Shown: positions 1 through 57,632, counted from the first letter of the stretch. The stretch: DNA of 64,000 nucleotides from an uncultured Nitrospiraceae bacterium (GCA_964447405.1 CAYUSP010000003.1:691723-755722), one strand, 5' to 3'. The notes: generated from the letters alone by a model not told the origin. Made by a program: numbers and translations.

Positions 1-251
1 TCCGGCGACGATCGTTTTCCGTAAAAGACCGCTTCCTTCATGGAAGGATTGTAATAGGCGTTCGTGATGTCGTCGGACAGCTTCGCAAGCAGTGATCTCG
101 CCAGGTCGGTCCGGTCCCTCTTCAGTTCCGCCTGCTCCACATTCCTGCCCGCAGTCGAGAAACTCGTATAGATCACTGTGACAATGATGGCGAGGATCGC
201 AGTCGCCAGCAGTACTTCGAGCAACGTAAATCCCTTGAAACCGAGAGGCAT
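1..251 (-). CDS. gspJ: Type II secretion minor pseudopilin (GspJ-like), N-terminal part only; the gene continues beyond the left edge
   Basis: My own translation from the ATG at 251 gives MPLGFKGFTLLEVLLATAILAIIVTVIYTSF..., a prepilin leader, G/FTLLE cleavage-methylation motif and hydrophobic helix. It follows gspI in the operon order. Confidence 0.6.
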   Translation of the reverse strand, partial: MPLGFKGFTLLEVLLATAILAIIVTVIYTSFSTAGRNVEQAELKRDRTDLARSLLAKLSDDITNAYYNPSMKEAVFYGKRSSP

Positions 252-300
252 GAAGCGTAAGGGGAAATCAGAGCACCTACAGGATTGATTACTGTTCTCC

Positions 301-332
301 ACCCCTGGCCCCTGGCCCCTGACCCCTGACCC
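301..332 (-). repeat. G-run tract on the mRNA-sense strand: GGGTCAGGGGTCAGGGGCCAGGGGCCAGGGG (5 G-runs, 3-nt loops)
   Basis: Read directly from the sequence. It lies between the gspI stop (337) and the gspJ start (251). Confidence 0.9.
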
Positions 333-336
333 TTTG

Positions 337-684
337 CTACTCATACCCCACCAGCTCTACCATTTCCTGCCGGTCCCCCTCTTTCCAGAGAACAGCAATG
401 CGCACCTCCATGATCTGGGTAAGGGGAGTGGGTGAAATCACCTTCTTCCATAGATACTCTTTGAACTCCACTTCGGGGAACTCCCCCTCATCCTCCGCAG
501 GAAGGCGCGGCCGCTTTACGATCGTGTCCGTCATCACCCGCTTCGCAAGAAGCGTGGCCGTGGTGATCCGCTCTGCTGCCAGGACGTTCTGCATGCTCCT
601 GTTTTTGAGCCCCAGCAGTGAGACCAGTACAAACGCCATGATCGAAACGGCCATCATCACTTCGAGAAGGGTGAAACCTTTCAT
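337..684 (-). CDS. gspI: Type II secretion minor pseudopilin GspI
   Basis: ORF 337..771 trimmed to the ATG at 684: MKGFTLLEVMMAVSIMAFVLVSLLG is a prepilin motif. Its ~115-aa size and operon position fit GspI. Confidence 0.75.
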   Translation of the reverse strand: MKGFTLLEVMMAVSIMAFVLVSLLGLKNRSMQNVLAAERITTATLLAKRVMTDTIVKRPRLPAEDEGEFPEVEFKEYLWKKVISPTPLTQIMEVRIAVLWKEGDRQEMVELVGYE

Positions 685-727
685 TCCTTGAGGGAAGGAT
701 TGAAATCCGGCCCGGAGACTCGGTTCT

Positions 728-759
728 CCCCATGCCCCATGACCCCTGCCCCATGACCC
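728..759 (-). repeat. G-run tract on the mRNA-sense strand: GGGTCATGGGGCAGGGGTCATGGGGCATGGGG (5 G-runs)
   Basis: Read directly from the sequence. It lies between the gspH stop (768) and the gspI start (684). Confidence 0.9.
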
Positions 760-767
760 TTGATCCA

Positions 768-1304
768 TCATCGCTCCTCTATCCGTCCTTCGCGGAGCTC
801 CGTATCCCCTGTCAGCGGCCTCACGATCAGGGTGAAAATCTTTTCATCCGCGTCCTTCAGGTAAATAAAGGTCTTCTCCACCCAGCCGTCCGGTGTGAAC
901 TGGATATAATGTTCATCGGAGTGGCTGCCCGCCCGCACATCGCTGAAAGCGGTCTGGCCGGAAAGGATTCCTTCGCTCCCCATCTCGGAGTGATATTTTC
1001 TGAACTCCACAGCCTGCTCTCCAGCCAGGCTGAGAACCTCGGCCCAATAGTGTCCGTTGGGAATATCGAACCTTAGGCGGAACACCGCTTTTTTTGCCTG
1101 TGCCTCGTCCCGCAGAAACCGTATGGTGCCAGTCAAGTGGCGCGCGCTCTGCTTGAGGTTTGCTTCTCCCATGTCCCCGAGGCGGGAGATCACGAGCGAA
1201 AGCATCACTCCCAATACGACAATAACAACCGCAAGTTCTACGAGTGTGAATCCGCGGGGGCTGTTCCGTAACCCGTGATCCCTGACCCCTGACCCTTGAC
1301 CCAT
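768..1304 (-). CDS. gspH: Type II secretion minor pseudopilin GspH
   Basis: 178-aa ORF with ...SPRGFTLVELAVVIVVLGVMLSLV, a prepilin cleavage motif. There is no alternative in-frame start between 1304 and the GFTLVE motif, so the G-rich repeat encodes part of an 18-aa leader. Confidence 0.75.
   Translation of the reverse strand: MGQGSGVRDHGLRNSPRGFTLVELAVVIVVLGVMLSLVISRLGDMGEANLKQSARHLTGTIRFLRDEAQAKKAVFRLRFDIPNGHYWAEVLSLAGEQAVEFRKYHSEMGSEGILSGQTAFSDVRAGSHSDEHYIQFTPDGWVEKTFIYLKDADEKIFTLIVRPLTGDTELREGRIEER
1272..1302 (-). repeat. G-run tract on the mRNA-sense strand: GGGTCAAGGGTCAGGGGTCAGGGATCACGGG (5 G-runs)
   Basis: Read directly from the sequence. It overlaps the gspH start codon and its first codons. 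Confidence 0.9.
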
Positions 1305-1310
1305 GGCAAG

Positions 1311-1751
1311 CTACTCTATCTTCCAGCTCTGGATATCGGCATTCTTGCCCTCGCCGCCCGGCTCGTTGTCAGCGCCGTAGGAGATGATTTCATATTCTCT
1401 GCCTTCGCTTCCCGGCGATAGATACACGTAGTCCTTGTCCCACGGGTCCTTGGGAATGCGCGCCGGCTTCAGATAGCCGCCCTCGCGCCACTTCGGCGGG
1501 ACGCGGCCTGTTTCCGGCTTCCTGATCAGGGCGTCAAACCCCTGCTCCGTGGAAGGATACGATCCATTGTCGAGTTTGTAAGCATCCAACGCGCTTTCCA
1601 GCGACCGGATCTGCACTTTTGCCGTCCCGATCTTCGCCTTTTCCTCCTGCCCCAGAATGCGGGGAAGGACCAGTCCCGCAAGCAGACCGAGGATAATGAT
1701 CACCACCATGATCTCGATGAGGGTGAAACCCTTTTGATTTCTTGTCTTCAT
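1311..1751 (-). CDS. gspG: Type II secretion major pseudopilin GspG
   Basis: ORF trimmed to the ATG at 1751, preceded by AAAGGAGA. MKTRNQKGFTLIEIMVVIIILGLLAGLVLPR plus ...DPWDKDYVYLSPG...ISYGADNEPGGEG is typical of GspG. Confidence 0.9.
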   Translation of the reverse strand: MKTRNQKGFTLIEIMVVIIILGLLAGLVLPRILGQEEKAKIGTAKVQIRSLESALDAYKLDNGSYPSTEQGFDALIRKPETGRVPPKWREGGYLKPARIPKDPWDKDYVYLSPGSEGREYEIISYGADNEPGGEGKNADIQSWKIE

Positions 1752-1841
1752 ACCGAGTCTCCTTTTACCACCTGACAATATCCGGTTTTCCTTGCCCCCT
1801 GACCCTTGCTCCTTGACCCTGATTTCCAAACCCTGCCGTTA

Positions 1842-3062
1842 TCATCTCAGCCCCGAGCTCATCTCAAGCATAGGCAGCATGATGGCGATGACAATGAAAC
1901 CGATGATCAGGCCCATCACCAGGATGATCACCGGTTCCAGGAGCGCCAGAAACCCGGTGATGCGCGTCTCCACGGTGCGGTCGAACGAATCCGAGATCTT
2001 GAGTAGCATTTTTTCGAGTTCACCGCTCTTCTCGCCCACGGCAACCATCTGCACGACCACGGGCGGGAACAGGCCGCTCCTGCGCAGCGGGTCCGCGATG
2101 GGCTCGCCTTCACGTACGTTGTCGCGGGCCTTCTGGACCGCATTCGCCAGCACGGTATTCCCCACTACATTTCTGACAATATCAAGGGCAGTCAGCGTAG
2201 GAACTCCGCTCTGGAGCAGCGTGCCCAGTGTCCGCGTGAACCGGGATACCGTGATCATGCGGATAAGCCCGCCGAACACGGGAATACGCAGCAGCCAGGC
2301 GTCAACGGCCTCTCTTCCCGCTTGCGTGCCGATATATCTCCGGAAATAGAATATCCCCAGGCCAAGCGCCAGCAGGATCGCCCACCAGTAAGAGGAGAGC
2401 AGCCGCACGATCCCAAGCAGCATGAGCGTCACGAACGGAAGCTGCTGTTTCGTGTTCTCGAACATGCCCACGACGCGCGGCATTACAAAGCTGAACACGA
2501 AGAACAGCATGCCTGCGCCGATGATCGTCATGAACGCGGGATAGGCAAGGGCCGCTGTGATCCTGCCGCGGAACCGCACCTGCTCGTCCAGAAAATCCGC
2601 CAACCGGTCAAGGGTTATCTCAAGAGTCCCGCTCGCTTCACCAGCCGAGACCATGTTGACATAGAGCGGCGAAAAGACCTGCGGATTATCCTTGAGTGCA
2701 TCCGCAAGCGATGCGCCTTCGCGTACCCTGTCGCGCACCGCGGAGAGCGCGGCCTTCAGGGCCTCGGTCTCCTCCTGGTCCACCAGCACGGTCAGAGCAT
2801 CCATCAGGGGGAGCCCCGATGACAACAGTGTCGCAAGCTGCCGCGTGGAGGTGGCCAGGTCGCCGAGACGCACCTTTCGCCTGAACACGGTGGTTGATGC
2901 CCCCCTGCGGGCAGCCTGGGCAGCGTCCCCTTCGCGGATCTCAAGAACGATGATGCCGTCTTTCTTGAGCTTCGTCCGGACGGTCTTGAGGCTTTCCCCG
3001 TCCTGGGCACCGGATATCTTCTTTCCCTGGCTGGTAACGCCTTTGTATTCGTAGACCGGCAT
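1842..3062 (-). CDS. gspF: Type II secretion inner-membrane platform protein GspF
   Basis: 406 aa. The MPVYEYKG... start and duplicated T2SSF-type domains with TM helices are typical GspF/PilC features. Confidence 0.9.
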   Translation of the reverse strand: MPVYEYKGVTSQGKKISGAQDGESLKTVRTKLKKDGIIVLEIREGDAAQAARRGASTTVFRRKVRLGDLATSTRQLATLLSSGLPLMDALTVLVDQEETEALKAALSAVRDRVREGASLADALKDNPQVFSPLYVNMVSAGEASGTLEITLDRLADFLDEQVRFRGRITAALAYPAFMTIIGAGMLFFVFSFVMPRVVGMFENTKQQLPFVTLMLLGIVRLLSSYWWAILLALGLGIFYFRRYIGTQAGREAVDAWLLRIPVFGGLIRMITVSRFTRTLGTLLQSGVPTLTALDIVRNVVGNTVLANAVQKARDNVREGEPIADPLRRSGLFPPVVVQMVAVGEKSGELEKMLLKISDSFDRTVETRITGFLALLEPVIILVMGLIIGFIVIAIMLPMLEMSSGLR

Positions 3063-3086
3063 GGTTTTAATTCAGTTGGGGGTCGC

Positions 3087-3157
3087 GAGTTCGTAGTTCG
3101 GAGATAAAGACCGAAACTGCGATTCTCACTTCCATCTCCGAACTCCAAACTCCGAAC
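3087..3157. repeat. Intercistronic hairpin element: arms GAGTTCGTAGTTCGGAGAT / ATCTCCGAACTCCAAACTCCGAAC, 28-nt loop
   Basis: The inner 11 bp (AGTTCGGAGAT/ATCTCCGAACT) pair perfectly. The arms are tandem repeats of an (A)GTTCGGA-like unit. The element starts 5 nt after the gspE stop. Confidence 0.8.
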
Positions 3158-3162
3158 TTACC

Positions 3163-4848
3163 TCACGTTTCCTTCTGCGTCACCCTCACTACTTCGTCAA
3201 CTGACGTGATGCCGGCGAGGATCTTTTCTGCGCCGTCCTGGCGGAGCGAACGCATGCCTTTTTCCATAGCCAGGGCCTTGATCATGGAAGCATCCGAGTT
3301 CTTCATAATCATCTGGCGCATCTCGTCATCCACCGTCAGGAGCTCATAGATCGCGCTCCTGCCAAAATAGCCGGTGTGGAAGCAGGCTTCGCACCCTTTT
3401 GCCCGATACACGGTGATGCCCGCGGCTCCTGTCCTGATCTCGAGTTCCGCGATCTCGCCGGCGGTCATCTGGTATGGCTCACGGCACTCTTTGCACAGCA
3501 CGCGCACGAGCCTCTGCGCAAGGATCCCCATAACCGACGAGGAAATAAGAAACGGTTCGATCTTCATATCAATCAACCGGGTCACCGCACCGGCGGAATC
3601 ATTCGTATGCAGCGTGGAGAACACCAGGTGTCCGGTGAGCGCGGCCTGGATCGCAATCTCAGCGGTCTCGGAGTCCCGGATCTCGCCCACAAGGATCACG
3701 TCCGGATCCTGACGCAAAACCGAACGGAGCCCCGCGGCAAAGGTGAGATGGATCTTGGCGTTCACCTGGATCTGCCCGATGCCCTTGAGCTGGTACTCGA
3801 CCGGGTCTTCGATGGTGATGATGTTCTTGTCCGGAGAGTTGATCTTCGAGAGCGCCGCGTACAGCGTGGTAGTCTTGCCGCTGCCAGTCGGGCCGGTAAC
3901 GAGAACAATGCCGTGGGGTCGCTCGATCATCGCATTGAACCTGGTAAGGGTATCCCCGGTGAATCCGATCTGATCGAGAGGCAGCAGGGCGCTTTCGCGG
4001 TACAGGAGGCGGAGCACGAGCCGCTCGCCGAACGCGGTGGGAACAATCGAGACACGGATGTCCACATCCTTGCCACCGATCTTGATGCGCATGCCGCCGT
4101 CCTGCGGCAGCCGCCGTTCTGCGATGTTCAGATCGGCCATGATCTTGACGCGCGAAGCGATGCTGGCCTGAAACCGCTTCTGGATCGTGAGAATGTTGTA
4201 CAGGATGCCGTCTATGCGGAACCGCGCGATCATCTCTTTTTCGAAGGGCTCGATGTGAATGTCGCTCGCGCGCTCGCGGATGGCCTGGGACAGGAGCGAA
4301 TTCACCAGCCTGATGATCGGAGCGTCGTCGGTGGCCTCCAGCAGGTCCGCGGGCTCATCGAGCTCCACCGCGAGAAAGGACAGGTCATCCTCCTCCATTT
4401 CCTGGACCGTATCCTCGGCGCGGTTCATGTCCTCGCTGTGAAGGCGGTTGATGGTGTCCAGGATCAGTTCGGACGGGGCAAGCACCAGCGATATATCGGC
4501 GTTGAAAAGGGCCCGGAGATCATCAAGCGTGGCGAGGACAAGCGGTTCGGATGTGGCGGCAACGACCGAGCCGTTCTCCCTGCGGAGCGGGACGGCGATC
4601 GCTTTTTTTGCGTAGGTGATGGGAACCTTGAGGGCCAGCTCGCGGTCGATTTCCCCGAGCTCGCCCTGGAACGGAAGGCGGAGCTGGGCGCCGAGCGCCT
4701 TCAGCACATCGGCCTCCGTCACAAAGTTTAACCGGACCAGCAGCGTACCGATCCGTCCGCCGCGCTTTTTCTGGAGTTCGAGCGCCTTTTTCAGCCGCTC
4801 CGGCGAAAGCCCGGACTCAACAAGTATCTCGCCGAGCAGGCGTCTCAC
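3163..4848 (-). CDS. gspE: Type II secretion ATPase GspE
   Basis: 561 aa. It has an N-terminal T2SE_N-type domain, a Walker A motif (GPTGSGKTTT), and a tetracysteine motif (CKEC...CEAC). Confidence 0.92.
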   Translation of the reverse strand: MRRLLGEILVESGLSPERLKKALELQKKRGGRIGTLLVRLNFVTEADVLKALGAQLRLPFQGELGEIDRELALKVPITYAKKAIAVPLRRENGSVVAATSEPLVLATLDDLRALFNADISLVLAPSELILDTINRLHSEDMNRAEDTVQEMEEDDLSFLAVELDEPADLLEATDDAPIIRLVNSLLSQAIRERASDIHIEPFEKEMIARFRIDGILYNILTIQKRFQASIASRVKIMADLNIAERRLPQDGGMRIKIGGKDVDIRVSIVPTAFGERLVLRLLYRESALLPLDQIGFTGDTLTRFNAMIERPHGIVLVTGPTGSGKTTTLYAALSKINSPDKNIITIEDPVEYQLKGIGQIQVNAKIHLTFAAGLRSVLRQDPDVILVGEIRDSETAEIAIQAALTGHLVFSTLHTNDSAGAVTRLIDMKIEPFLISSSVMGILAQRLVRVLCKECREPYQMTAGEIAELEIRTGAAGITVYRAKGCEACFHTGYFGRSAIYELLTVDDEMRQMIMKNSDASMIKALAMEKGMRSLRQDGAEKILAGITSVDEVVRVTQKET

Positions 4849-6710
4849 CGGGCGCCCTCGGCGGGTCGGCTCGACTCAGGAGTGACCGTCGTCGCGGCGG
4901 GTGCTGACTGCTGTTGGCCAGCAGCCGGCTCCTGCCCAGCCCCTGACTGTTCGCCGGTTGTAGGTTTTTTCTCGTGCGCGCCCGGGAGGCCCCGGTCCTT
5001 TTTGTCAATACGGTATTCCTTGCGGAACTCATCCAGGGATTCGTTCTTGTGCCTCGTAAGTTCGCCGGCCTCGGCGTCTCCCTTGATCACGTAGGGCGTA
5101 ATGAAAATCATGAGGTTCGTCTTCTCGATCTTGGTCGTCTTGTATTTAAAGAACCATCCCAGGATCGGGATATCGCCCAGCAGCGGCACCTTCACGGTTG
5201 ACGCTGTCGCATTGTCCCTGATCAGCCCGCCGATCACCATGGTTTCCTTGTCTTTCACTACGACGGTGGTGCTTGCCGAACGCTTGCTCGTACTCGGGCC
5301 CACCAGGTTCGGATTCAATCCGGCAGTCGCGATCACGTTGGATATCTCAAGGTTCAGCTCGAGCTTGACGTTGTCCTCCGAGGTGATCTGCGGCGTCAGT
5401 TCCATGGTCAGGCCGACGTCCTTTCGATCGATGGCGGTCAGGATGGAGCCGGCCGTTGCCGGAGTCTGGGTTTGACTGCCGATGAACGGCACATTCTCGC
5501 CGACCATGATCTTGGCCTTTTGATTGTCCGTGGTAAGGATGTTCGGCGTGGACAGCACATTCACGTCGCCGTCAGTCTGCACCGCGCGAAGGAGCGCGCC
5601 GATGTTCATGTACTCCACACCTTTAAAAGAGAAGGTACCCTTGACCGCTCCCACGGCCAGGCCATTGAAGCCCGCGAATGCGGCAGGTCCGCTGACCGTC
5701 GCGTTGGCGATGCCGCCGAAGTTCGTCCCGCCCACGGCATTCGTGCTGCTGTCGCTCAGTTGATTGACAGCGCGGAACTCGAATCCGAGTTCCCGCTGCT
5801 TTGCCAGACCCATCTCGATGATCGCTGCTTCGACATAGACCTGGCGGCGGCGAATATCAAGTTTCTGGATCACGTCCTTCATGATCTCGAAATCGCCTGG
5901 CGATGCGACAATAATCAGCGAGTTCGTTGTCTTGTCCGCAGTGATGGTGACCGCGCCTTCGAGGATCGTGGACGGTCCCGCGGGCTGCGCCGCTCCTCCC
6001 GCCGGCGGCACCGGCAGCCTGGAGACAAGCGCCTGCATCAGTTTAGCGATGTCCTCGGCGTTTGCGTTCCTCAAATAGTAGACGTTAATCTTGCCTTTCC
6101 CTTCGGGCGCCGCCACGTCCATGGCATGGATCAGGCTTTCGATCTTCCTGATGTTATGCACGGAGTCGGTAATGATGACGGAGTTCGTGGTGGGATAGGC
6201 GATCAGCGTGCCGTCTTTGGTAACGAGGGGGGAAATCGTTCGCACGATCTCCTGCGGATTGACGAAACTCATGCGGATGAGCTTGGTTACGTACCCCTCC
6301 CCGTTCATGCTGCCATCCTGCATCACCTTGAGCCCGCTCTGCCTGGCCGAGGCCGCGGGAATGATGCGGATCACCGCTCCGTCCTCAATGGCTGTAAACC
6401 CCTTGATTTCGAGCGCCGAAAGGAACACCTGGTATGCCTCGTCGGGTGAGATCTTCGTCGGCGTCATGAGCGTGATCTTGCCCACCACGCGTTCATCCAG
6501 GATGAAGTTCCTGCGCGTAAGCTCGCTCATCACTTTGATGAGGGCGTTGATGTCGATGTTGGTGAAGTTCAGGGTGATGTAATCCTCGCCGGATCTTGCC
6601 TTCTGAAGATCGGCCTGATCGGGCGGGGCAACGGGCTTCTTCTCTTCAGCGTTAGCCGCGGATATGCCCATGAGCCCCATGAGAAGCAGCAGGGCCGCTG
6701 TTCTTTTCAC
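4845..6710 (-). CDS. gspD: Type II secretion secretin GspD
   Basis: 621 aa. Signal peptide MKRTAALLLLMGLMGISAANA, N-domains and a secretin C-domain (VPLLGDIPILGWFF). It has a low-complexity Gln/Ala/Pro-rich tail. There is a 4-nt overlap with gspE. Confidence 0.92.
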   Translation of the reverse strand: MKRTAALLLLMGLMGISAANAEEKKPVAPPDQADLQKARSGEDYITLNFTNIDINALIKVMSELTRRNFILDERVVGKITLMTPTKISPDEAYQVFLSALEIKGFTAIEDGAVIRIIPAASARQSGLKVMQDGSMNGEGYVTKLIRMSFVNPQEIVRTISPLVTKDGTLIAYPTTNSVIITDSVHNIRKIESLIHAMDVAAPEGKGKINVYYLRNANAEDIAKLMQALVSRLPVPPAGGAAQPAGPSTILEGAVTITADKTTNSLIIVASPGDFEIMKDVIQKLDIRRRQVYVEAAIIEMGLAKQRELGFEFRAVNQLSDSSTNAVGGTNFGGIANATVSGPAAFAGFNGLAVGAVKGTFSFKGVEYMNIGALLRAVQTDGDVNVLSTPNILTTDNQKAKIMVGENVPFIGSQTQTPATAGSILTAIDRKDVGLTMELTPQITSEDNVKLELNLEISNVIATAGLNPNLVGPSTSKRSASTTVVVKDKETMVIGGLIRDNATASTVKVPLLGDIPILGWFFKYKTTKIEKTNLMIFITPYVIKGDAEAGELTRHKNESLDEFRKEYRIDKKDRGLPGAHEKKPTTGEQSGAGQEPAAGQQQSAPAATTVTPESSRPAEGAR

Positions 6711-6748
6711 TCGTCGCCTCCGTGATTTGAATTGTACAGGAAAATACG

Positions 6749-6829
6749 AACCGGAGAATCGGGGAATGGGGGCCTCGGAAAGGTTCTCGGGCCAATATTC
6801 CGTAGCTCCCGTTCCCCGGTTCCCCGGTT
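6749..6829. repeat. Intercistronic hairpin element: arms AACCGGAGAATCGGGGAATGGG / CCCGTTCCCCGGTTCCCCGGTT, ~37-nt loop
   Basis: 19 of 22 positions are complementary. The arms are tandem CCGGGGAA-like units. The element starts 6 nt after the gspC stop and lies before the gspD start. Confidence 0.8.
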
Positions 6830-6835
6830 TATGTG

Positions 6836-7660
6836 TTAGCGTATCTCGTAGTTCAGCGTCTGGCGCTGACCGCCGCGGATGAGGTCAATGGAGATGTACC
6901 GCTCGTTCCTGAGTCCCTGGTAAAGCTGGAAGAACTTGGAGGGATCGTCAACATCCTGCGAATTGACCCGCTGGATCACATCATTGTTCTGGATCCCGAT
7001 CTTCTCATAGATGCTGCCCGGCACGATCTCGCTGATCTTGAACCCCACGGTCTTTCCCTGCTCCATATGGGGCAGCGCACGCGCCTGCGTCAGTATCTGG
7101 CTCATGTTTTCCGTGCTCGCGATCATTTCTTTCTGGTCCACCATCCATTTGCCATCGGAGAGCTTTTTTACACCGTTTACGCCCGGCTTTGGGATGGAGA
7201 CGATCTTGGTGTCGTCGATGATCTGGATGTCGACGGTCCCGCCATCCGCTTTCTGGAGCGTGACCTTGTCGCGGATAACCTTTATGATCTGCGAACCATC
7301 AGGCAGCTTCTGGCGCGTCCGGTAAAAAGCCTGGCCCGTGCTGTCCTCAAGCACTGCGCCGGAAAAATTCGCGCCCTCCACCGTCCCGATGAGCTTGTAG
7401 GTGGTGGCTTCGATTGCTGTCGCTCCCCCGGAAGGCCCTTTTCCATCACCGAAGATCCCGCGTTCAAGGATGGAGGAATAATCGGAGAGCTCGCGCTTCG
7501 GCTCGATCGCTGGCCGTTCACGGTCCAAGGGAGCCGCGTACTTCGGAGCAGCATCAAGGCTCCTGCCGATCATCGCATCCACCGTATCAGCAAGAAAATA
7601 AGCTGAAAACGTGAGAAGAGCAATGAGAACAAGCGTATACAGTGTTTTTTCTTCTTTCAC
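6836..7660 (-). CDS. gspC: GspC-like type II secretion protein (N-terminal TM helix, C-terminal PDZ domain)
   Basis: 274 aa with a GTG start, TM segment LYTLVLIALLTFSAYFL and a PDZ-like C-terminus (GFKISEIVPGSIYEKIGIQNNDVIQRVN). It sits immediately upstream of gspD. Confidence 0.7.
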   Translation of the reverse strand: MKEEKTLYTLVLIALLTFSAYFLADTVDAMIGRSLDAAPKYAAPLDRERPAIEPKRELSDYSSILERGIFGDGKGPSGGATAIEATTYKLIGTVEGANFSGAVLEDSTGQAFYRTRQKLPDGSQIIKVIRDKVTLQKADGGTVDIQIIDDTKIVSIPKPGVNGVKKLSDGKWMVDQKEMIASTENMSQILTQARALPHMEQGKTVGFKISEIVPGSIYEKIGIQNNDVIQRVNSQDVDDPSKFFQLYQGLRNERYISIDLIRGGQRQTLNYEIR

Positions 7661-7815: not shown

Positions 7816-8499
7816 TCATGCAATGAAGAACCCCTGGTAAAACCGCTCTGCCCGCTCACGGTAGCCGGGAAATATCCGTTCCGAGTCAATGGCAACGTCG
7901 GAAACATCGATGCCCTTCTCGTTCTTCAGCCATTCCTGCACCATGGCAGGAGTGACCTCGATGTGGAATTGGAGCGCATACACCCTGTCACGAAACAGGA
8001 AAGCCTGGTTCTGATAGAGCTCCGAAGATGCGAGGCATACAGCTCCAGCAGGAAGATCGAACGTGTCGCCATGCCATTGGAAGACCTGGGCACGGTCCCG
8101 GCCTGGTATCGTGAGAGCGGACATACCGGGATCTTTCAATCCGTCGCGCGTCAGTTCAACTTCGGACCATCCAATCTCCTTGCGAGAGCCGGGATAGACA
8201 CGGCTGCCGAGCACATGTGCGATCATCTGCGCACCAAGGCAGATTCCGAGTACATGCTTGTCCATTTTTATGGCCCGATCAATCAGCAGTGCCTCGTGTA
8301 CGAGATGGGGATAGGTAAGCATTTCGTACACCGCCATGGGTCCGCCCATGACCAGAAAATGGGAAAATTGATCGGGATCGGGGACATCATCGCCCGCGCT
8401 GAGATCAACGACCGCAAAGGGTATCCCGCGCGCAAGCAAATGCTCCGCGATCGTACCCGGCCCTTCACTGAAGATGTTCTTGATGATGAGAACCCGCAT
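7816..8499 (-). CDS. Class I glutamine amidotransferase-like protein (GMP synthase GATase-domain type)
   Basis: 227 aa. The GICLGAQ nucleophile elbow and ...QFHIE motif are typical of the type-1 GATase family. Confidence 0.75.
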   Translation of the reverse strand: MRVLIIKNIFSEGPGTIAEHLLARGIPFAVVDLSAGDDVPDPDQFSHFLVMGGPMAVYEMLTYPHLVHEALLIDRAIKMDKHVLGICLGAQMIAHVLGSRVYPGSRKEIGWSEVELTRDGLKDPGMSALTIPGRDRAQVFQWHGDTFDLPAGAVCLASSELYQNQAFLFRDRVYALQFHIEVTPAMVQEWLKNEKGIDVSDVAIDSERIFPGYRERAERFYQGFFIA

Positions 8500-8682: not shown

Positions 8683-8711
8683 ATTATAGACAAGGCGGGA
8701 TTATTTTTCAA
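8683..8711 (-). promoter_or_regulatory. Sigma-70-type promoter TTGAAA-17-TATAAT positioned for a leaderless transcript of the 55-aa ORF/GATase unit
   Basis: On the minus strand, -35 is at 8706-8711 and -10 at 8683-8688. The A of the ATG (8676) is 7 nt downstream of the -10 box. Confidence 0.5.
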
Positions 8712-8741
8712 TGATTATCGAAAAAAGCGCTTACTTTCCTG

Positions 8742-8770
8742 TTGCTAATCAGCATGAGACTCACTATAAT
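8742..8770 (+). promoter_or_regulatory. Sigma-70-type promoter TTGCTA-17-TATAAT positioned for a leaderless namZ-like transcript
   Basis: -35 is at 8742-8747 and -10 at 8765-8770. The A of the ATG at 8777 is 7 nt downstream of the -10 box. Confidence 0.5.
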
Positions 8771-8776
8771 TCGCCC

Positions 8777-9961
8777 ATGCTGGCCGACAAAAACGTTCTC
8801 TCTGGACTGGATCTCATTGACAAACAGTGGCCCCGGGACCTCAAAGGCGCGCGTGTCGGGCTCGTCGTGCATCCCGCTTCCGTGAACCGCAACCTGCAGC
8901 ACGCGGTCACAATATGCATGAGGTCGAAGCGCTTCGAGCTCACTACGCTCTTCGGCCCGCAACACGGGATCCTCGGGCAGACCCAGGACAATATGATCGA
9001 ATGGGAGGGTTTCAAAGACCAGTCCACCGGCCTCCCTGTTTACAGTTTATACGGTAAATTCCGCAAACCTCGCCCTGAGATGTTGGCGAACATTGATGTT
9101 CTGGTGGTCGACCTTCAGGATGTGGGGAGCAAATATTATACGTTCATCTGGACATTGGAACTCTGCATGCAAGCGTGCAGGAGCGCGGGCAAGGCCGTGA
9201 TTGTCCTGGACCGGCCCAATCCGATAAATGGGCAGAGCGTTGAAGGGCCGCTCCTGAATCCCGAATACGCGTCCTTTGTCGGGCTTCGTCCCCTTCCCAT
9301 CCGCCACGGCATGACCATCGGAGAGATCGGATCCTATCTCAGAAACACATTCCATGCCGGGCTGGACTACCGTGTCATCGCCATGCAGGGATGGAAGCGC
9401 GGCATGTGGTTTGAACAGACAAAACTGCCCTGGGTAATGCCCTCACCTAACATGCCGACACCCGATACGGCTCTGGTCTATCCCGGCATGTGCCTGTTCG
9501 AGGCCACGAACATCTCGGAAGGCAGGGGTACCACGCGGCCCTTCGAGATCTTCGGTGCACCGTTCATCATTGCCGAGGCTATTGTGGACGTTCTCAAAGA
9601 ATTCAAGCTGCCTGGCGTGATCTTCCGCCCCCTCTCGTTCCAGCCCACGTTCCAGAAACACGCGAACGCACTCTGCAACGGCGCTCAGATCCATGTAACG
9701 AACCGTGACAGGTTCAAACCATTCAAGACCGGAGTAGCGATCCTGAAAGCCATCCACAATACGTATCCCCGCGACTTCAAGTGGAACCAGCCTCCCTATG
9801 AATATGAAGAAGTGAACCTTCCTATCGACATCCTGGCGGGAAGCGATCGGCTGCGCAAGGACGTCGAATCATGGAAGGACATTGATGATATGGAAGCGTG
9901 GTGGAAGGAAGAAGCGAAGGCGTTTGAAAAAACAAGGAAGCAATTCTTGCTCTATAAATAG
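8777..9961 (+). CDS. namZ: DUF1343 family protein, NamZ-like exo-beta-N-acetylmuramidase candidate
   Basis: ORF 8711..9961 trimmed to the ATG at 8777. MLADKNVLSGLDLI...ARVGLVVHPASV...VVDLQDVGSKYYTF...LDRPNPING...GLRPLPIRHGMTIGE is the DUF1343/YbbC pattern. Confidence 0.75.
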   Translation: MLADKNVLSGLDLIDKQWPRDLKGARVGLVVHPASVNRNLQHAVTICMRSKRFELTTLFGPQHGILGQTQDNMIEWEGFKDQSTGLPVYSLYGKFRKPRPEMLANIDVLVVDLQDVGSKYYTFIWTLELCMQACRSAGKAVIVLDRPNPINGQSVEGPLLNPEYASFVGLRPLPIRHGMTIGEIGSYLRNTFHAGLDYRVIAMQGWKRGMWFEQTKLPWVMPSPNMPTPDTALVYPGMCLFEATNISEGRGTTRPFEIFGAPFIIAEAIVDVLKEFKLPGVIFRPLSFQPTFQKHANALCNGAQIHVTNRDRFKPFKTGVAILKAIHNTYPRDFKWNQPPYEYEEVNLPIDILAGSDRLRKDVESWKDIDDMEAWWKEEAKAFEKTRKQFLLYK

Positions 9962-9970
9962 AACCATTTC

Positions 9971-10103
9971 ACCGCAGAGGACGCAGAGGGGAAGCATGGC
10001 GAGGAAGGCAACGGCGGGCAAGGCATTAAGCTTTGTTTAAAAACCAGAAATAATTTTGAATTAAGATTTCCTTGGAGTTGATTTCCTCTGCTTCCTCTGC
10101 GGT
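9971..10103. repeat. Cargo-less hairpin element with the same terminal inverted repeats as the GxxExxY cassette
   Basis: The left arm ACCGCAGAGGACGCAGAGG (9971-9989) is identical to 12360-12378. The right arm CCTCTGCTTCCTCTGCGGT (10085-10103) matches the exact complement at 18 of 19 positions. The 95-nt interior is AT-rich and has no ORF. Confidence 0.85.
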
Positions 10104-10114
10104 AACAATTATTT

Positions 10115-12091
10115 ATGCCTGAATTCAATCTCAACATTTTCCTCCCCGCAGCTGGCCTCGGTGAACGGCTCAGACCGATCACGAACCACATTCCCAAACC
10201 GCTCCTTCCGATACTCGGCAAGCCAATCATCGAAGGCATTCTCGATAAACTCACTCTTGTCTGCAACGGCAGCATAGGGATTAACCTCCACTACAAGCCG
10301 GATATGCTACGCGAATGGGCTGTACGATCTACCTGGGCTGACCGCATATCATTCTTTCCCGAGGACCCGATCCTCGGGACCGGCGGCGCGCTTAAGAACG
10401 CGGAGTCATTTCTCTCCAGCAGGAACTTCATCGTCCACAACTCAGACATCCTCCTTGATATCAACTTCACCCGCCTGATCGAAGAGCACCTCTCTTCAGG
10501 TAATATCGCCACACTTGTATGCCACCGTTTGCCGGAGCTTGCCAACGTCGTGATCGATACACACGGCCAGGTCCTGGATGTAGAAAACCCGGGAGCATCA
10601 AAACCGGACGCATCGACCACTGCGGACAAGGTCGCCTATACCGGCGTCGCAATCTACTCACCGGACATATTGCAGTTTCTGCCATCCGGCGTTTCACATG
10701 CCACGGTCGCGTGGATAGCCGCGTCCAAGGCTGGTTTTCGAGTGCGCGCCTGGGATGTCACCGGCTCGTACTGGAACGACGTGGGAAATCCAGTGACCTA
10801 TGCACGAGGTGTACTGGACGCCCTGCGTGAAAACGGGGAAATGGTGCATGTCTCCCCTGCGGCACGATGCGGGAACATCCTGAGCGACGGTTATCTGGTG
10901 CTCGAGTCAAACGGGGAAGTACAGGACAGCTCCCGGCTCAGGAATTGTATTGTGATGCCCGGGGCAAACGTTTCCGGCAGTCATGCGGACTGCATTCTCG
11001 GTCCGGACTACGCGGTCGCACTTACGGAATCCGACATGCAGCCGTCGGTCCATGCGGCGGAAAAGAAACGCGTATTGCTGAACGATCCGCTTTTCTCGTC
11101 GCACTTTGGGATTCACGCCATGAGCAACTGCACAGCTGCAACTCCCAACTCGCCATTCTGGTCCGACGCAATCCTGATAGGACTCGGCGGCTCGGATAGG
11201 CGCTATTTCCGCGTACGGAACAATGGTAAGACCGCGGTCCTCATGGAGTGCCGGCAGGATGATCCGGACTATGATCGCCATTTGATTTACACCAGGTTCT
11301 TTAAAGAACATACCGTGCCCGTGCCTGAGCTCATTGCATCAGACACTGAGGGCAAACGTGCCCTGTTCGAGGACCTCGGAGACACATCGTTGTACTCATA
11401 CCTGAAGCTTCCGCACGCGGCTTATGCAGTCGAGGAAGTCTATCGGAAGGTGCTCGACATCCTGGTGCAGCTCCACACCAGGGTCACGAATCATGTATAC
11501 GGGTGCCCGACACTCAGTGCGCGAGTATTCGACTATGATCATTTACGGTGGGAAACAGGTTATTTTATGGAGCGGCTCGTCACCGGACTGAAAGATATCG
11601 CGGCGTTTGATCGGGCGGCACTGGACAACGAATTCCACCGGCTTGCGGAGCGGACAGCTGCGTTGCCCAAAAGCGTGATCCACCGGGATTTTCAATGCCA
11701 GAATATCATGATCACGGATGGAGACATGCCGCGCGTAATCGATTTCCAGGGCGCACGCATGGCGCCGCCAGGTTATGATGTCGCATCCATGCTGTGGGAC
11801 CCGTACCACCGGCTGGATGAAGGCGTCCGGGAGCGCCTTATTGGTTATTATGTGGCGGAAATGAAGAAATGTTCGGAAAATTTCGATGAGCAGGCTTTTT
11901 TGAACAGCCTGATCCCCTGCCGGCTTCAGAGACATATGCAGGCTTTGGGTGCATTTGGATTTTTGTCTGTGGTCAAGGGGAAAAAATATTTCCGCAAGCA
12001 CATACCCGAGGCAATGCGACTGTTGAAAGAGGAGACTATCCTGGTCAAGGAAGAATTTCCGACGCTGGCATTGCTCGCGTCAACACTCTGA
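10115..12091 (+). CDS. Fused sugar-1-phosphate nucleotidyltransferase (MurU-like) and aminoglycoside-phosphotransferase-fold sugar kinase (AmgK-like)
   Basis: A single 658-aa ORF. The N-terminus has LPAAGLGERLRPITNHIPKPLLPI (the NTP-transferase G-x-G-x-R motif). The C-terminus has HRDFQCQNIMI...VIDFQGARMAPPGYDVASML (APH/AmgK-type catalytic loop). Confidence 0.65.
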   Translation: MPEFNLNIFLPAAGLGERLRPITNHIPKPLLPILGKPIIEGILDKLTLVCNGSIGINLHYKPDMLREWAVRSTWADRISFFPEDPILGTGGALKNAESFLSSRNFIVHNSDILLDINFTRLIEEHLSSGNIATLVCHRLPELANVVIDTHGQVLDVENPGASKPDASTTADKVAYTGVAIYSPDILQFLPSGVSHATVAWIAASKAGFRVRAWDVTGSYWNDVGNPVTYARGVLDALRENGEMVHVSPAARCGNILSDGYLVLESNGEVQDSSRLRNCIVMPGANVSGSHADCILGPDYAVALTESDMQPSVHAAEKKRVLLNDPLFSSHFGIHAMSNCTAATPNSPFWSDAILIGLGGSDRRYFRVRNNGKTAVLMECRQDDPDYDRHLIYTRFFKEHTVPVPELIASDTEGKRALFEDLGDTSLYSYLKLPHAAYAVEEVYRKVLDILVQLHTRVTNHVYGCPTLSARVFDYDHLRWETGYFMERLVTGLKDIAAFDRAALDNEFHRLAERTAALPKSVIHRDFQCQNIMITDGDMPRVIDFQGARMAPPGYDVASMLWDPYHRLDEGVRERLIGYYVAEMKKCSENFDEQAFLNSLIPCRLQRHMQALGAFGFLSVVKGKKYFRKHIPEAMRLLKEETILVKEEFPTLALLASTL

Positions 12092-12359: not shown

Positions 12360-12845
12360 ACCGCAGAGGACGCAGAGGAAGTCAAACCCGCTGGCCTATA
12401 ATCCGTTGGCGACTCTCTTAATGCCATCTTTCAAATGAACAACATTGAAGTTTATTAATAGCCCAAGCTTTTTATTGCTTAATTTCAGGTATGAAAGAAT
12501 TTGTGCTTCATGAATCGGCAATATTTTCTCAACTGCCTTCAATTCAACGATAACACAATTGTCAAGCATAAGGTCTATTCTATATCCGGCATCGATCTTC
12601 AAGCCATCATACAGGATCGGCAAGGCCATTTGAGAAAGCACGGTTAATCCGAGCTTTCGTAGTTCATGCAGCAAACATGCTTCATACGCGCTTTCCAGCA
12701 AACCAGGACCCAAAGCTGAATGAACTTTCATTGCAGCTTCAATAATCTTACCACTAACCCCATTTATATCCATTTATTCCAGACCTCCTGTCTATCCTGC
12801 CAGTTTTTGACCTCCTCGCCTCTCACCCTCTGCGTCCTCTGCGGT
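12360..12845 (-). mobile_element. Hairpin-bounded cassette carrying a GxxExxY gene (perfect 19-bp terminal inverted repeats)
   Basis: ACCGCAGAGGACGCAGAGG at 12360-12378 is the exact reverse complement of 12827-12845. The interior is AT-rich. The element begins 6 nt after the cca stop. Confidence 0.7.
12396..12773 (-). CDS. GxxExxY family protein (PD-(D/E)XK-like small protein)
   Basis: 125 aa. It has the motif G-L-L-E-S-A-Y in ...HSALGPGLLESAYEACLLHEL, a typical ...DLMLDNCVIVELKA... core, and an AGGAGG RBS 8 nt upstream. Confidence 0.85.
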   Translation of the reverse strand: MDINGVSGKIIEAAMKVHSALGPGLLESAYEACLLHELRKLGLTVLSQMALPILYDGLKIDAGYRIDLMLDNCVIVELKAVEKILPIHEAQILSYLKLSNKKLGLLINFNVVHLKDGIKRVANGL

Positions 12846-14329: not shown

Positions 14330-15025
14330 TCATTCCCCGGTCGTTGCTTCCTGAGGTTCCTCACCCGTGATCTGCCTGATGTCCTTCAGCCGTTTTTTCC
14401 TGTCTTCCCGCACAACATACCAGTCATGAATGAGCGTCTCGATCAGGCCGATCAGGAGCTTTTCCTCGCCGGAGTCGGTGTCCTGAATTGCGGCCCCCTC
14501 ACTCTCCATCCGAGCTCCGATCATGCCGCTCCTGCGCACAGACTCGATGGCCTCCCAGGTGAGCGGGTCCACCGTGCCCTTGACCTGGCGGAATTCGTCA
14601 TTGAGACTGCCGGGTTGGACCTGCCAGAAATCACGAAGCATTGCGGAGAGGCAGCGCCGCGACAGGGCTGCAGCCACTTTGGGGCTGAACTCGGCGGCAA
14701 AACAAGCTTCCTGATAATCTTCGAGAATATTATGCGGAAGGGTTGTAGGAAAAGACCGGGCTCGTGAAGGCGGAATGAGCGGCCAGGTCTTGATGTGCTT
14801 ACCCGTGTAAGACCGGTGGTGGCCCGATGTCTCAAGGGTGTGCAGCGAAGCATTCAGGGAGAACCGGCGGCATTTCGGATTGGGGCAAACCACATACTTC
14901 ACCACCAGGCGGCGCGGTCCGTCTGCGTTTTCCCCGGTGAGATCAGCAAAGCTTACCTGACGGTCCGCATCGGACACGGTCTGGTCCGTGCCACAGAACG
15001 CGCAATTCCAGAAATATTCACCCAT
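14330..15025 (-). CDS. DUF4145 domain protein with an N-terminal zinc-ribbon
   Basis: ORF trimmed to the ATG at 15025, preceded by GGGAGGGA. It has CAFCG...CPNPKC cysteine pairs followed by ...ILEDYQEACFAAEFSPKVAAALSRRCLSAMLRD, which is DUF4145-like. Confidence 0.6.
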   Translation of the reverse strand: MGEYFWNCAFCGTDQTVSDADRQVSFADLTGENADGPRRLVVKYVVCPNPKCRRFSLNASLHTLETSGHHRSYTGKHIKTWPLIPPSRARSFPTTLPHNILEDYQEACFAAEFSPKVAAALSRRCLSAMLRDFWQVQPGSLNDEFRQVKGTVDPLTWEAIESVRRSGMIGARMESEGAAIQDTDSGEEKLLIGLIETLIHDWYVVREDRKKRLKDIRQITGEEPQEATTGE

Positions 15026-15051
15026 GGCTTCCCTCCCTGATATGCATTCCC

Positions 15052-16134
15052 TTACTCCGCGAGCAGTGCCCGCAGATGCTGTTCCTCCCATTCCCTGGTG
15101 ACTACAACCTCGCCTATCTTAGTCGGCAGAACGAATTTAACTTTTCCCCCTTCTGCCTTTTTGTCGATCTGCATCGTTTCCATGAGTTCCGTCACGGACG
15201 GTTTTCGGCTGAGTGAAGACAGACTGGCCGGCAGTCCAAAGGAGGTGACGAGTTTTTCCACTCGCCCGGGGACCGACGAATCGCAGAAACCCGCTTTATG
15301 AGCAAGCCGCGACGCATAGACCATGCCGATGGCCGCAGCATGGCCATGGCGCATGGTGTAGTTCTCCGCAGTTTCAATCGCATGCCCCACGGTGTGGCCA
15401 AAGTTCAGGACCGCACGAAGCCCGCCCTCGCGCTCATCCCTGCTCACAACGTCTGCTTTGATCTCGCAGGACCGGCTGATGATATGGTTCAGTGCGTCAG
15501 CATCCAGCGAGAGGATCCTGTCGCGGTTTTGTTCGAGATATACGAAGAAGGCGCTGTCCCGGATCACTCCGTACTTGATCACTTCGGCCATTCCCGAGAG
15601 CAGCTCCTCGCGGGGAAGGGTCTTCAGCACTTCGAGGTCCATCAGCACTTTTTGTGGCTGATAAAATGCGCCGATCATGTTCTTGCCCATGCTATGGTTC
15701 ACGCCGGTTTTGCCGCCCACGCTGCTGTCCACCATGGCGAGGAGCGATGTGGGGACCTGAATAAATGGCACGCCGCGCATGAAGGTCGCGGCTGCGAAGC
15801 CGGTGAGATCGCCTATCACTCCGCCGCCCAAAGCTACGAGCGCGGAATTTCTGTCGAAGCTGTTGATCAGGAGCGCAGTGTAGATGGCATTCGCCCAATC
15901 AAGGTTCTTGTACTGCTCCCCGTCCGGCACCTCGATGGACATGACCGTGAATCCCGCGTTTTTAAGGCTGTCCGCGGCGCGTTTGCCGTACAGGCCCTTG
16001 ACCAGGGGATTCGTAACCAGGGCCATCTTTCTGCCGAGGCCCAGACCCTGCAGGCGGGCGCCGATATTGTCCAAGCTTGAACCGATCTCGATGTCATAGC
16101 TCCGGTCGCCGAGGTTGACACTAACAGTATGCAT
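15052..16134 (-). CDS. aroB: 3-dehydroquinate synthase
   Basis: 360 aa with GGGVIGDLTGFAAATFMRGVPFIQVPTSLLAMVDSSVGGKTG and the HxxGH motifs typical of AroB. Confidence 0.92.
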   Translation of the reverse strand: MHTVSVNLGDRSYDIEIGSSLDNIGARLQGLGLGRKMALVTNPLVKGLYGKRAADSLKNAGFTVMSIEVPDGEQYKNLDWANAIYTALLINSFDRNSALVALGGGVIGDLTGFAAATFMRGVPFIQVPTSLLAMVDSSVGGKTGVNHSMGKNMIGAFYQPQKVLMDLEVLKTLPREELLSGMAEVIKYGVIRDSAFFVYLEQNRDRILSLDADALNHIISRSCEIKADVVSRDEREGGLRAVLNFGHTVGHAIETAENYTMRHGHAAAIGMVYASRLAHKAGFCDSSVPGRVEKLVTSFGLPASLSSLSRKPSVTELMETMQIDKKAEGGKVKFVLPTKIGEVVVTREWEEQHLRALLAE

Positions 16135-56474: not shown

Positions 56475-57632
56475 TTACACTATTCTCCTCAATCCGTCAG
56501 CGATCCTGATCGTTGCGCCGCGCCAGGTCGGGAAGACTCCTGCCACAGCACCGACGATAAATGCTGCAAGGAAATCAAGATAGATGGTCTCCGGTGTGAG
56601 ACGGAACACAGGGAAGAACGCGCCCAGTTTTTGGCCGATCCACTCTGCCGCCGGGAAACTGAGCGCCACGCCCACTACCCCGCCGGCCATGGCAATAACC
56701 AGCGACTCGCCGAAGACCACGCCTGCAACATGCCAGCCGCCGAAGCCCAGGGTCTTCAGGGTGGCGTATTCGGCAATGCGTTCCCGGGCTGTCATGGCCA
56801 TGGTGTTCGCCGCGACGACCATGATGATCACGATGACCACATAGGAGACCAGCCGGATAGCGACCACGATGGCCTCGGTCATGGACACAAAGCTCATCTG
56901 GAACGACCGTTCCGTCTCGGTTAGCGTCTCGGCAAGTGAGTTCTTGAACATGCCATCTACATAAAGCGATACTTCAGCAGCCAGGTCCGGGCTGGTTAGC
57001 CCCAGAACATAGAATCCGACCTGGTCCGCCCGCTGCGGCGCGGTTTTCCGAACCGACTCGTTTAGATAGTCCCAGTGAAAGAAGAATTGCGAGGTGTCGG
57101 TGATGCGTTCCGCACCCCGGTAAATGCCGCGCACCACGAACTCCCACTGGCCGGGAAAGATGGTGCCGCGCAGGGTCACGATGTCCCCGCCCTTCCAGCC
57201 GAAGCGCTCTGCCGTGCTCTTGCCCACGACGCAGCCTTTTCGGTCTACAAGGAAGGCCTTCCTTTCCTCGGCAGTGAGCACGTATTCCGGGTAAAGATCC
57301 AGGTAGGTCTTCGGCTCCACCGCAAAATTAGGGAAGAAGTTCTTCTCGTCGATATAGACCCCGCCGAACCAATTCCCCGAGGAAACCGTAGTAACGCCGG
57401 GAACCTGGCGGATCTTTTCCAGATATGAGGCAGGCAGGAGGAAAATCAGGGAGATGGCGTTCCTCGTCACGAGACGGGAGGCGGAGGAGGATTCCACGCC
57501 AAGGTACCACGCGGCAACAAGGGTTCGCAGGAGCCCGAAGGCCAGCACGGCAATGGCGACGCCGACAATGGTAAGCGTTGACCTGAGCTTGTGGCGGAAG
57601 GCGTTCCGGATGATGAGCTTAAGCACGAACAT
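56475..57632 (-). CDS. ABC transporter permease, FtsX/MacB-type (first of two)
   Basis: 385 aa with the same architecture as 55070..56236 (...[15 protein letters not shown]...). Confidence 0.85.

Follow-up and report, generated by a model that had tools for sequence, protein, structure and literature searches.

A conserved operon of a NamZ-family gene and a MurU-AmgK-like fusion gene in Nitrospirota: a candidate route for cytoplasmic N-acetylmuramic acid salvage

A two-gene locus on the plus strand of a 64,000-nucleotide (nt) stretch of DNA from an uncultured Nitrospiraceae bacterium (GCA_964447405.1 CAYUSP010000003.1:691723-755722; the window) encodes a protein of the NamZ family (GH171/DUF1343), followed by a fusion of a MurU-like sugar-1-phosphate nucleotidyltransferase with an AmgK-like kinase. 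The first open reading frame (ORF) spans 8711..9961 (416 residues). As its homologs align from residue ~24-32 onward only, a start at 8777 (Met23, 394 residues) is plausible, and we place the gene at 8777..9961. The second ORF, 10115..12091, encodes 658 residues, with the nucleotidyltransferase domain in residues 1-240 (10115..10834; assigned by Pfam, NCBIfam and Foldseek), a middle region in residues 241-342 (10835..11140), possibly a linker or a degenerate form of left-handed beta-helix, and a kinase domain of the APH fold in residues 343-658 (11141..12091; Pfam, NCBIfam, PDB and Foldseek). The two genes are separated by a spacer of 153 base pairs (9962..10114) and sit between divergently oriented neighbours. 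A first-pass annotation of the window had described a NamZ-like gene next to a 658-residue fusion ORF, and both ORFs were indeed found, with matches to Pfam NamZ_N/NamZ_C and to NTP_transferase plus APH that lie far beyond chance.

The fusion is widespread. More than 1,400 close relatives are found in the databases, named only 'phosphotransferase' or 'NDP-sugar pyrophosphorylase/aminoglycoside-choline kinase', and the protein is present in at least 597 species-level genomes. Among the matches listed, the carriers are mostly Nitrospirota (Nitrospiria, including Nitrospira, and Thermodesulfovibrionia); others belong to Methylomirabilota/Rokubacteria, Binatia, Hydrogenedentota and Caldimicrobium. 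In a sample of 81 genome loci with the fusion, 58 have a NamZ homolog upstream in the same orientation, and five of the negatives have no upstream DNA. NamZ is the immediate upstream neighbour in 51 loci, at spacings of -32 to +241 nt; in 21 of these 51 pairs the genes overlap, by 1-32 nt and typically by 4 or 8. No family besides NamZ occurs near the fusion in more than 10 of the 81 loci. By gene order, the NamZ-fusion pair is a conserved operon, often with predicted translational coupling.

Profile comparisons place the kinase half, over its whole domain, closer to AmgK than to any other family of the APH fold. Pfam APH matches residues 354-581 (E=2.3e-26), and the NCBIfam AmgK model scores 90.3 bits over model positions 32-320 of 324, while other kinase families reach at most 23 bits. 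Clustering with choline or homoserine kinases, which the first-pass annotation had named as an outcome that would contradict it, is not observed at these scores, and Choline_kinase and LicA gave no match in the kinase half at E<=0.01 in Pfam or NCBIfam. The sole full-length relative of the kinase in the PDB is 3csv (E=1.9e-18; Foldseek template modelling score, TM, 0.75), which itself best matches the AmgK models, with 238 and 121 bits. The two proteins have the motifs S-RRY-R, EDLGD, HRDFxxQN, IDFQxA and YDxxSxLxD in common. The catalytic loop reads H523-R-D-F-Q-C-Q-N530, followed by D543-F-Q-G-A-R. In an alignment of 77 fusion homologs (37-100% identity), residues H523, D525 and N530 of the H-x-D-x4-N loop, D543 and Q545 of the D-x-Q metal site and G358-G-S of the Gly-rich loop are invariant, as are the motifs GGSDRRY.R, EDLGD, HRDFQxQN, DxQGAR and YD..S.LWDPY.

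The transferase half shows a broader set of relationships. Pfam NTP_transferase covers residues 12-231 (E=1.8e-17), and the typical G-x-G-x-R motif is present as G14-L-G16-E-R18, followed by P27-K-P. Both this motif and the AmgK-like catalytic loop had been noted in the first-pass annotation, and both proved invariant or nearly so among the 77 homologs. The top NCBIfam match is MurU with 83.6 bits, followed by mannose-1-phosphate guanylyltransferase (73.7 bits), the archaeal GlmU-type model (66.5 bits) and HddC (52 bits). The domain aligns with MurU from Pseudomonas aeruginosa (PaMurU, 8hhd) across residues 6-224, and Foldseek superposes it on MurU with TM 0.73-0.75 at 24-27% identity. In Pseudomonas putida MurU, Asn52 is the key UTP-holding residue, together with Glu79, while the corresponding pair is Ser53/Glu80 in HddC and Val/Gln in UDP-glucose pyrophosphorylases (PMC6981941). 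Asn57 and Glu83 of the fusion align with residues 52 and 79 of PaMurU, and no family sequence deviates at either position (76 of 76 for Asn57, 77 of 77 for Glu83). The pocket therefore differs from the guanine-type pocket of HddC by an Asn at the Ser53 position; the Glu is common to HddC and MurU and does not discriminate between them. At this position of the base pocket (L4), Asn also occurs in the UTP-using CugP structure 8x7s, and Ala in the GMPP-type structure 7whr. As far as alignment can tell, the pair is of the MurU type, not of the HddC or UDP-glucose pyrophosphorylase type, and these residues alone separate the transferase from the HddC/GMPP families. A grouping with the mannose-1-phosphate guanylyltransferases of polysaccharide synthesis, likewise named beforehand as a contrary outcome, was thus found neither in the scores nor in the base pocket.

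Between the two domains, the first-pass annotation had suggested a possible beta-helix extension at residues ~241-342. GMPP-type enzymes carry a C-terminal beta-helix, with which the middle region aligns weakly: the profile alignment to mannose-1-phosphate guanylyltransferase reaches residue 289, and Foldseek alignments to GMPP-type enzymes cover 320-350 columns. On these alignments, the suggested extension is weakly supported. In the AlphaFold model the N-terminal and kinase domains are confident, while residues ~240-346 have a predicted local distance difference test score (pLDDT) below 50; the region has no Pfam match, and it is missing from a related fusion lineage of the Desulfobacterota type described below. 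Both active sites are strictly conserved across the 77 members (Asn57, Glu83 and every catalytic residue of the kinase), so both halves of the fusion should be active; from its domain families, the fusion almost certainly takes a sugar to the sugar-1-phosphate and on to the nucleoside diphosphate (NDP)-sugar.

The NamZ-like protein is a clear but unusual member of its family. It matches the Pfam pair PF07075 and PF20732, with NamZ_N at E=1.4e-82 (276.5 bits, cutoff 26.9) and NamZ_C at E=1.2e-57 (195.4 bits, cutoff 25), and its nearest solved structure is BF0371 from Bacteroides fragilis (4k05, E=6.7e-73). The founding NamZ paper proposed a single putative catalytic residue, Glu92 of the Bacillus subtilis enzyme, at the C-terminal tip of beta-strand 2. 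In our protein the sequence 'GPQHG' stands in place of the 'PEHG' of the Bacteroides structures 4k05 and 4jja, with a Gln at the position of the proposed catalytic Glu. In its AlphaFold model (pLDDT 90.8), beta-strand 2 comprises residues 54-60 and Gln62 follows directly after it. This Gln is invariant across all fusion-linked NamZ homologs. The protein also has no signal peptide, as its N-terminus contains no hydrophobic segment and its homologs begin at the catalytic domain, whereas BsNamZ (Bacillus subtilis) and TfNamZ1-3 (Tannerella forsythia) all carry one and all characterised NamZ enzymes are secreted.

A family search over 1.84 billion representatives yielded 8,528 NamZ family members, of which 132 near-full-length neighbours were typed. 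The Glu-type accounts for 100 of the 132, with a signal-like N-terminus in 16 and none in 84. The 30 Gln-type proteins form a single neighbour-joining clade (30/30, purity 0.91); among the N-termini of 29 representatives, 28 have no extension, one has a non-signal extension and none is signal-like, so that we infer a cytoplasmic location for the clade. Its catalytic loop is remodelled: Asn72 is inserted and invariant, Met73 comes next, and Glu75 is conserved. Of the residues invariant throughout the family, about 45 are kept, including His63, Asp112/115/145, Glu183/242/248, Arg250 and Lys294. Arg250, in the motif 'SEGRGT', is invariant in Gln-type and Glu-type proteins. From position arithmetic and the 'GRGTT' of 4jja, with no direct alignment, it probably corresponds to Arg279 of BsNamZ, a conserved Arg of the C-terminal domain that points into the cleft. 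Such an Arg would fit the recognition of a carboxylate, and characterised NamZ enzymes are specific for non-reducing-end N-acetylmuramic acid (MurNAc) with a free lactyl carboxylate. We read the NamZ-like protein as a probably active enzyme with a remodelled catalytic loop. A dead enzyme was considered and judged unlikely, given the ~45 retained residues and a loop change that is coordinated and conserved. The earlier description of the protein as a MurNAc-releasing glycosidase fits the characterised NamZ enzymes, from which this protein differs: it appears to be cytoplasmic, with Gln in place of the proposed catalytic Glu, so that its release step is putative. Elsewhere in the family, NamZ domains are fused to MobB (three representatives), a sodium:solute symporter, a beta-lactamase-fold domain, Clp_N and a histidine phosphatase (among P0166, P0172, P0204, P0223, P0246, P0131 and P0211). 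These partners are suggestive of links to import and the cell wall, without being decisive; the NamZ-MobB fusion was unexpected.

The association recurs outside Nitrospirota. In three loci of a Desulfobacterota type (L082, L083 and L085), a Gln-type NamZ gene is followed by a MamI-like gene, PlsB and a fusion of NTP_transferase and APH of 560-582 residues, with an RNase H gene also in between in L082 and L085. This fusion lies 3.4-4.5 kb downstream of NamZ and is 27% identical to that of the window; MurU (119 bits) and AmgK (67 bits) are once more the top NCBIfam families. The observation of the shorter fusion also covers loci L092, L096 and L136. A third type of fusion, 35-38% identical to both other types, directly adjoins NamZ in the metagenome loci L143 and L152. 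Altogether, a fusion is present in 7 of the 30 metagenomic Gln-type NamZ loci that extend 5 kb or more downstream. In other contexts, Gln-type NamZ genes are accompanied by genes for an MFS transporter, for a YkuD L,D-transpeptidase or for GlmS- and GlmM-like proteins. Judged by these loci, the NamZ-fusion association is recurrent, not universal. In two soil metagenome loci (L086 and L087), a gamma-glutamyl-hydrolase-like glutamine amidotransferase (Peptidase_C26), an MFS transporter, an SDR, a Gln-type NamZ and an FmdE-domain protein stand in a row with a YkuD L,D-transpeptidase close by; this row may be another cluster for processing wall fragments in the cytoplasm. The MFS transporter next to NamZ in these two loci was considered as AmpG, and gave no NCBIfam AmpG match.

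With moderate confidence, we interpret the operon as a predicted cytoplasmic salvage route for MurNAc, and probably N-acetylglucosamine (GlcNAc), to a uridine diphosphate (UDP)-sugar, namely UDP-MurNAc. A peptide-free wall fragment with MurNAc at its non-reducing end, e.g. MurNAc-GlcNAc, would enter the cytoplasm, where the signal-less Gln-type NamZ-family enzyme would cut it. Based on family resemblance and the conserved motifs, the AmgK-like domain would phosphorylate the freed MurNAc at C1, and probably GlcNAc too, and the MurU-like domain would join the sugar-1-phosphate to uridine monophosphate from uridine triphosphate (UTP). The resulting UDP-MurNAc would re-enter wall synthesis, bypassing MurA and MurB. 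Substrate identity, nucleotide choice and cellular location are all indirect assignments here. MurNAc salvage is nevertheless the best explanation, because of the AmgK and MurU affinities and the tight coupling to a family whose characterised members release MurNAc. The first-pass annotation had likewise proposed that released MurNAc is channelled to MurNAc-1-phosphate and UDP-MurNAc; the AmgK/MurU affinities and the conserved linkage to NamZ support this in part, while the atypical NamZ, the low profile scores and the indirect substrate assignment leave it at the level of a plausible proposal.

Several observations weigh against this interpretation. Besides the Gln at the proposed catalytic position and the missing signal peptide, both halves of the fusion fall below the curated equivalog cutoffs: the kinase scores 90.3 against 550 bits and 56.4 against 500 bits for AmgK (NF045759 and NF045698), and the transferase 83.6 against 250 bits and 64.2 against 370 bits for MurU (NF045761 and NF045697). 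As these scores are far under the cutoffs, we call the fusion AmgK/MurU-like and do not claim orthology. The transferase also misses the cutoffs of HddC (52 vs 300 bits) and of the mannose-1-phosphate guanylyltransferase model (73.7 vs 440 bits). For calibration, identity between the verified Caulobacter enzymes and those of Pseudomonas is as low as 30% for AmgK and 37% for MurU. The transferase is, moreover, nearly equidistant from HddC, GMPP, CugP and MurU (scores within ~10 bits; all TM ~0.75), and the fusion has an extra region of ~100 residues that the 'minimal' MurU, a single domain of ~225 residues, does not possess. In terms of gene context, the fusion has no neighbouring NamZ in Methylomirabilota, Binatia, Hydrogenedentota and Caldimicrobium; 23 of the 30 metagenomic Gln-type NamZ loci have no fusion nearby; and no gene for a transporter, NagZ, an amidase, AnmK or MupP was found near the pair, in the window or in the related loci. 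The Desulfobacterota-type fusion gene directly follows the PlsB-type glycerol-3-phosphate acyltransferase gene, with a 4-nt overlap in L082 and L083, which hints at a connection to lipids. Finally, the survey published in the founding NamZ paper found NamZ mostly missing where AmgK/MurU are present.

The main rival explanation, which we consider possible but distinctly less probable, retains the logic of the pathway and changes the sugar: GlcNAc, N-acetylgalactosamine, a hexose or a lineage-specific sugar would be obtained from another intracellular or imported glycan, and the NDP-sugar would be used for a polysaccharide or glycoconjugate rather than for peptidoglycan. The similar scores of the transferase against HddC, GMPP, CugP-type UDP-glucose pyrophosphorylase and MurU, the GMPP-like extension and the failure to reach any equivalog cutoff would all be expected from such a protein, and its partner belongs to the Gln-type clade, whose loop is remodelled and which has no characterised member, in a family whose specificities already vary (TfNamZ1 vs TfNamZ2). 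The kinase, however, has only AmgK-type proteins as clear relatives, and the base pocket contains the MurU-type Asn, not the Ser of HddC or the Ala of 7whr. All three characterised GH171 enzymes act on MurNAc termini, and the Arg that would recognise a carboxylate is invariant. Genes for polysaccharide synthesis are not found nearby, in the window or in the related loci.

The remaining explanations appear less probable still. It is improbable that the Gln-type NamZ is a phosphorylase, which would convert MurNAc-beta-1,4-GlcNAc and phosphate to MurNAc-alpha-1-phosphate for the MurU-like domain and leave the kinase to serve mainly GlcNAc. The general base found in related hydrolases is missing from inverting phosphorylases, and family GH3 includes NagZ-like enzymes that are phosphorylases. 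The replacement of the proposed catalytic Glu by Gln throughout a monophyletic and exclusively cytoplasmic clade, together with a one-residue insertion and the new Glu75, would fit this chemistry, as would the linkage to a MurU-like domain whose substrate would be exactly the predicted product, and a change of chemistry such as phosphorolysis is conceivable in GH171. The role of Glu92 is putative, however, Glu75 could take it over in a hydrolase, ~45 other family-invariant residues are unchanged, and the full conservation of the kinase domain argues that it is needed. Were it true, this variant would save one ATP per MurNAc, i.e. it would be an ATP-sparing AmgK/MurU shunt with the first phosphorylase in GH171 and an undescribed form of wall-sugar recycling in Nitrospirota, Desulfobacterota and some other lineages. 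We regard as very unlikely a function as a LicC/LicA-like pair that acts on a non-sugar alcohol such as choline or ethanolamine and provides a cytidine diphosphate-alcohol for membrane lipids or surface decoration, in which case the NamZ gene would be linked by accident or for regulation. Fusions of LicC and LicA with a broadly similar architecture are known, the kinase half is labelled 'aminoglycoside/choline kinase family' by JGI, LicC (1jyk) is a weak PDB match of the fusion (E=9e-4), and the overlap with PlsB in Desulfobacterota-type loci points in the same direction. Yet the LicC match covers the N-terminal motif only, the kinase matches AmgK and, in Pfam and NCBIfam at E<=0.01, no choline kinase, the Nitrospirota loci lack PlsB and have NamZ as their sole conserved neighbour, and a head-group function would not account for the pairing with a glycosidase family. 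Least likely of all, in our assessment, is that the two genes are neighbours with no common pathway. The fusions without adjacent NamZ in several phyla and the majority of Gln-type NamZ genes without a nearby fusion in the metagenome sample would be consistent with this; the same-strand adjacency in 51 loci, with 21 overlaps, is not. The pairing, moreover, persists while all other neighbours change and recurs with three divergent fusion lineages, and the chance of finding a given gene within 10 kb is, by rough estimate, well under 1% of loci.

In terms of chemistry, the proposed salvage of MurNAc follows the AmgK/MurU shunt of Pseudomonas putida and P. aeruginosa, also present in Caulobacter crescentus and Tannerella forsythia, in which an anomeric kinase of the APH fold precedes a sugar-1-phosphate nucleotidyltransferase. 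The Asn52/Glu79 pair of MurU and the AmgK-type kinase motifs are conserved in the fusion, which differs in being one polypeptide, with the transferase in front of the kinase and ~100 residues between them, and in an identity of only ~23-27% to the solved members. The supplier of the sugar also appears to differ, as it would be a cytoplasmic NamZ-type glycosidase and not the AnmK/MupP route. With the GH171 enzymes (B. subtilis NamZ, T. forsythia NamZ1 and NamZ2, B. fragilis BF0371 and BF0379), the NamZ-like protein has the two-domain organisation and the ~45 invariant residues in common, but not the signal peptide, the Glu92 or the loop without Asn72 and Glu75. In contrast to the founding survey, NamZ is here encoded together with AmgK/MurU-like functions. 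GMPP/ManC, HddC and the CugP-type UDP-glucose pyrophosphorylase have the same nucleotidyltransferase fold and similar scores; unlike GMPP and HddC, the fusion has no mannose or heptose pathway context in the window or the related loci. Single polypeptides that phosphorylate and then nucleotidylate a free sugar or alcohol for its salvage are known from the Bacteroides L-fucokinase/GDP-fucose pyrophosphorylase FKP and from LicC-LicA fusions, but the kinase is of the GHMP type in FKP and a choline kinase in LicA, so that kinase fold and family differ from those of the fusion. The Pfam and NCBIfam searches gave no FKP or LicC-LicA family match to the fusion kinase.

A literature search returned no report of a natural MurU-AmgK fusion, a cytoplasmic NamZ, cell-wall recycling in Nitrospira or a NamZ-fusion operon; where checked, 'fusion' or 'fused' referred to a His-tagged protein, a lacZ reporter or an AmpD domain fusion. 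The components and the proposed chemistry are known, while the fusion, the cytoplasmic variant glycosidase and their coupling are new. What is known of peptidoglycan sugar recycling comes almost entirely from Proteobacteria, Bacillota and Bacteroidota. If our assignment is right, Nitrospirota, including nitrite oxidisers, and several neighbouring phyla possess a compact anabolic MurNAc shunt, in which a natural MurU-AmgK fusion is fed by a cytoplasmic NamZ-type enzyme, a combination that the founding survey saw as largely mutually exclusive. A large protein family and a whole GH171 clade would thereby gain a function, and intrinsic tolerance to fosfomycin would be predicted for these organisms. 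A single polypeptide that converts MurNAc to UDP-MurNAc would also be handy for metabolic labelling of the cell wall, for which two genes are now co-expressed. The Glu-to-Gln clade also offers a natural experiment on the mechanism of GH171.

The surroundings of the pair in the window contain no other genes for peptidoglycan, lipopolysaccharide (LPS) or capsule synthesis among the 20 further genes annotated. An LPS or capsule role of the neighbourhood, a third contrary outcome raised beforehand, was not found in the window or in the 80 related loci, and an LPS, capsule or polysaccharide context was ruled out from these 20 genes and the ten next-commonest neighbour clusters across the 81 loci, which comprise type II secretion, shikimate, menaquinone, folate, the CCA enzyme and sensor kinases. 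Type II secretion genes also occupy the minus strand upstream of the pair (window 1-7660), with a GspE-like ATPase at 3163-4848, a secretin at 4845-6710 and a GspC-like PDZ protein at 6836-7660; these genes border the pair in several of the related loci too, a sign of common ancestry and not of function. A gene for a class-I glutamine amidotransferase (7816-8499, minus strand) is divergent from the NamZ-like gene. Where NamZ is absent, the neighbours of the fusion show no pattern and include GlgC, a P-type ATPase, a molybdopterin oxidoreductase, one SLT-type transglycosylase and mis-called high-GC ORFs. In one Nitrospirota locus (L023, 8772-9998), the gene directly upstream of the fusion encodes a protein of 408 residues that, by sequence, resembles a GlgC-type glucose-1-phosphate adenylyltransferase and not NamZ; it had clustered with the fusion via its NTP_transferase domain. 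Three ORFs of the window have no Pfam match: 14330-15091 on the minus strand (253 residues, E<=0.01), which lies between the CCA-adding enzyme and aroB, and 26654-27952 on the minus strand (432 residues) and 57454-58980 on the plus strand (508 residues), both at E<=1e-5.

The scan for terminators gave no terminator-like site between the NamZ-like gene and the fusion gene, and the promoter and terminator counts overall were not above those in shuffled sequence. A search of the leader and the spacer for riboswitches and known RNAs gave only a spurious match to a microRNA hairpin (E=0.57). The spacer does fold into a predicted hairpin of -56.8 kcal/mol (z = -5.5) and holds an inverted pair of a 19-nt repeat, CCTCTGCGTCCTCTGCGGT, at 9971-9989 and 10085-10103, which encloses ~95 base pairs; the copy at 10085-10103 carries T at position 8. 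The repeat occurs four times in the window (0 expected), as two inverted pairs, and the second pair (12360-12378 and 12827-12845) encloses an ORF of 125 residues of the PDDEXK_3 nuclease family on the minus strand (12396-12773). From this arrangement, the repeats look like a small element with terminal inverted repeats, of which one copy is empty and the other carries the PDDEXK_3 gene. The pair in the spacer looks like a miniature inverted-repeat insertion, which would explain the 153-base-pair spacer in this genome.

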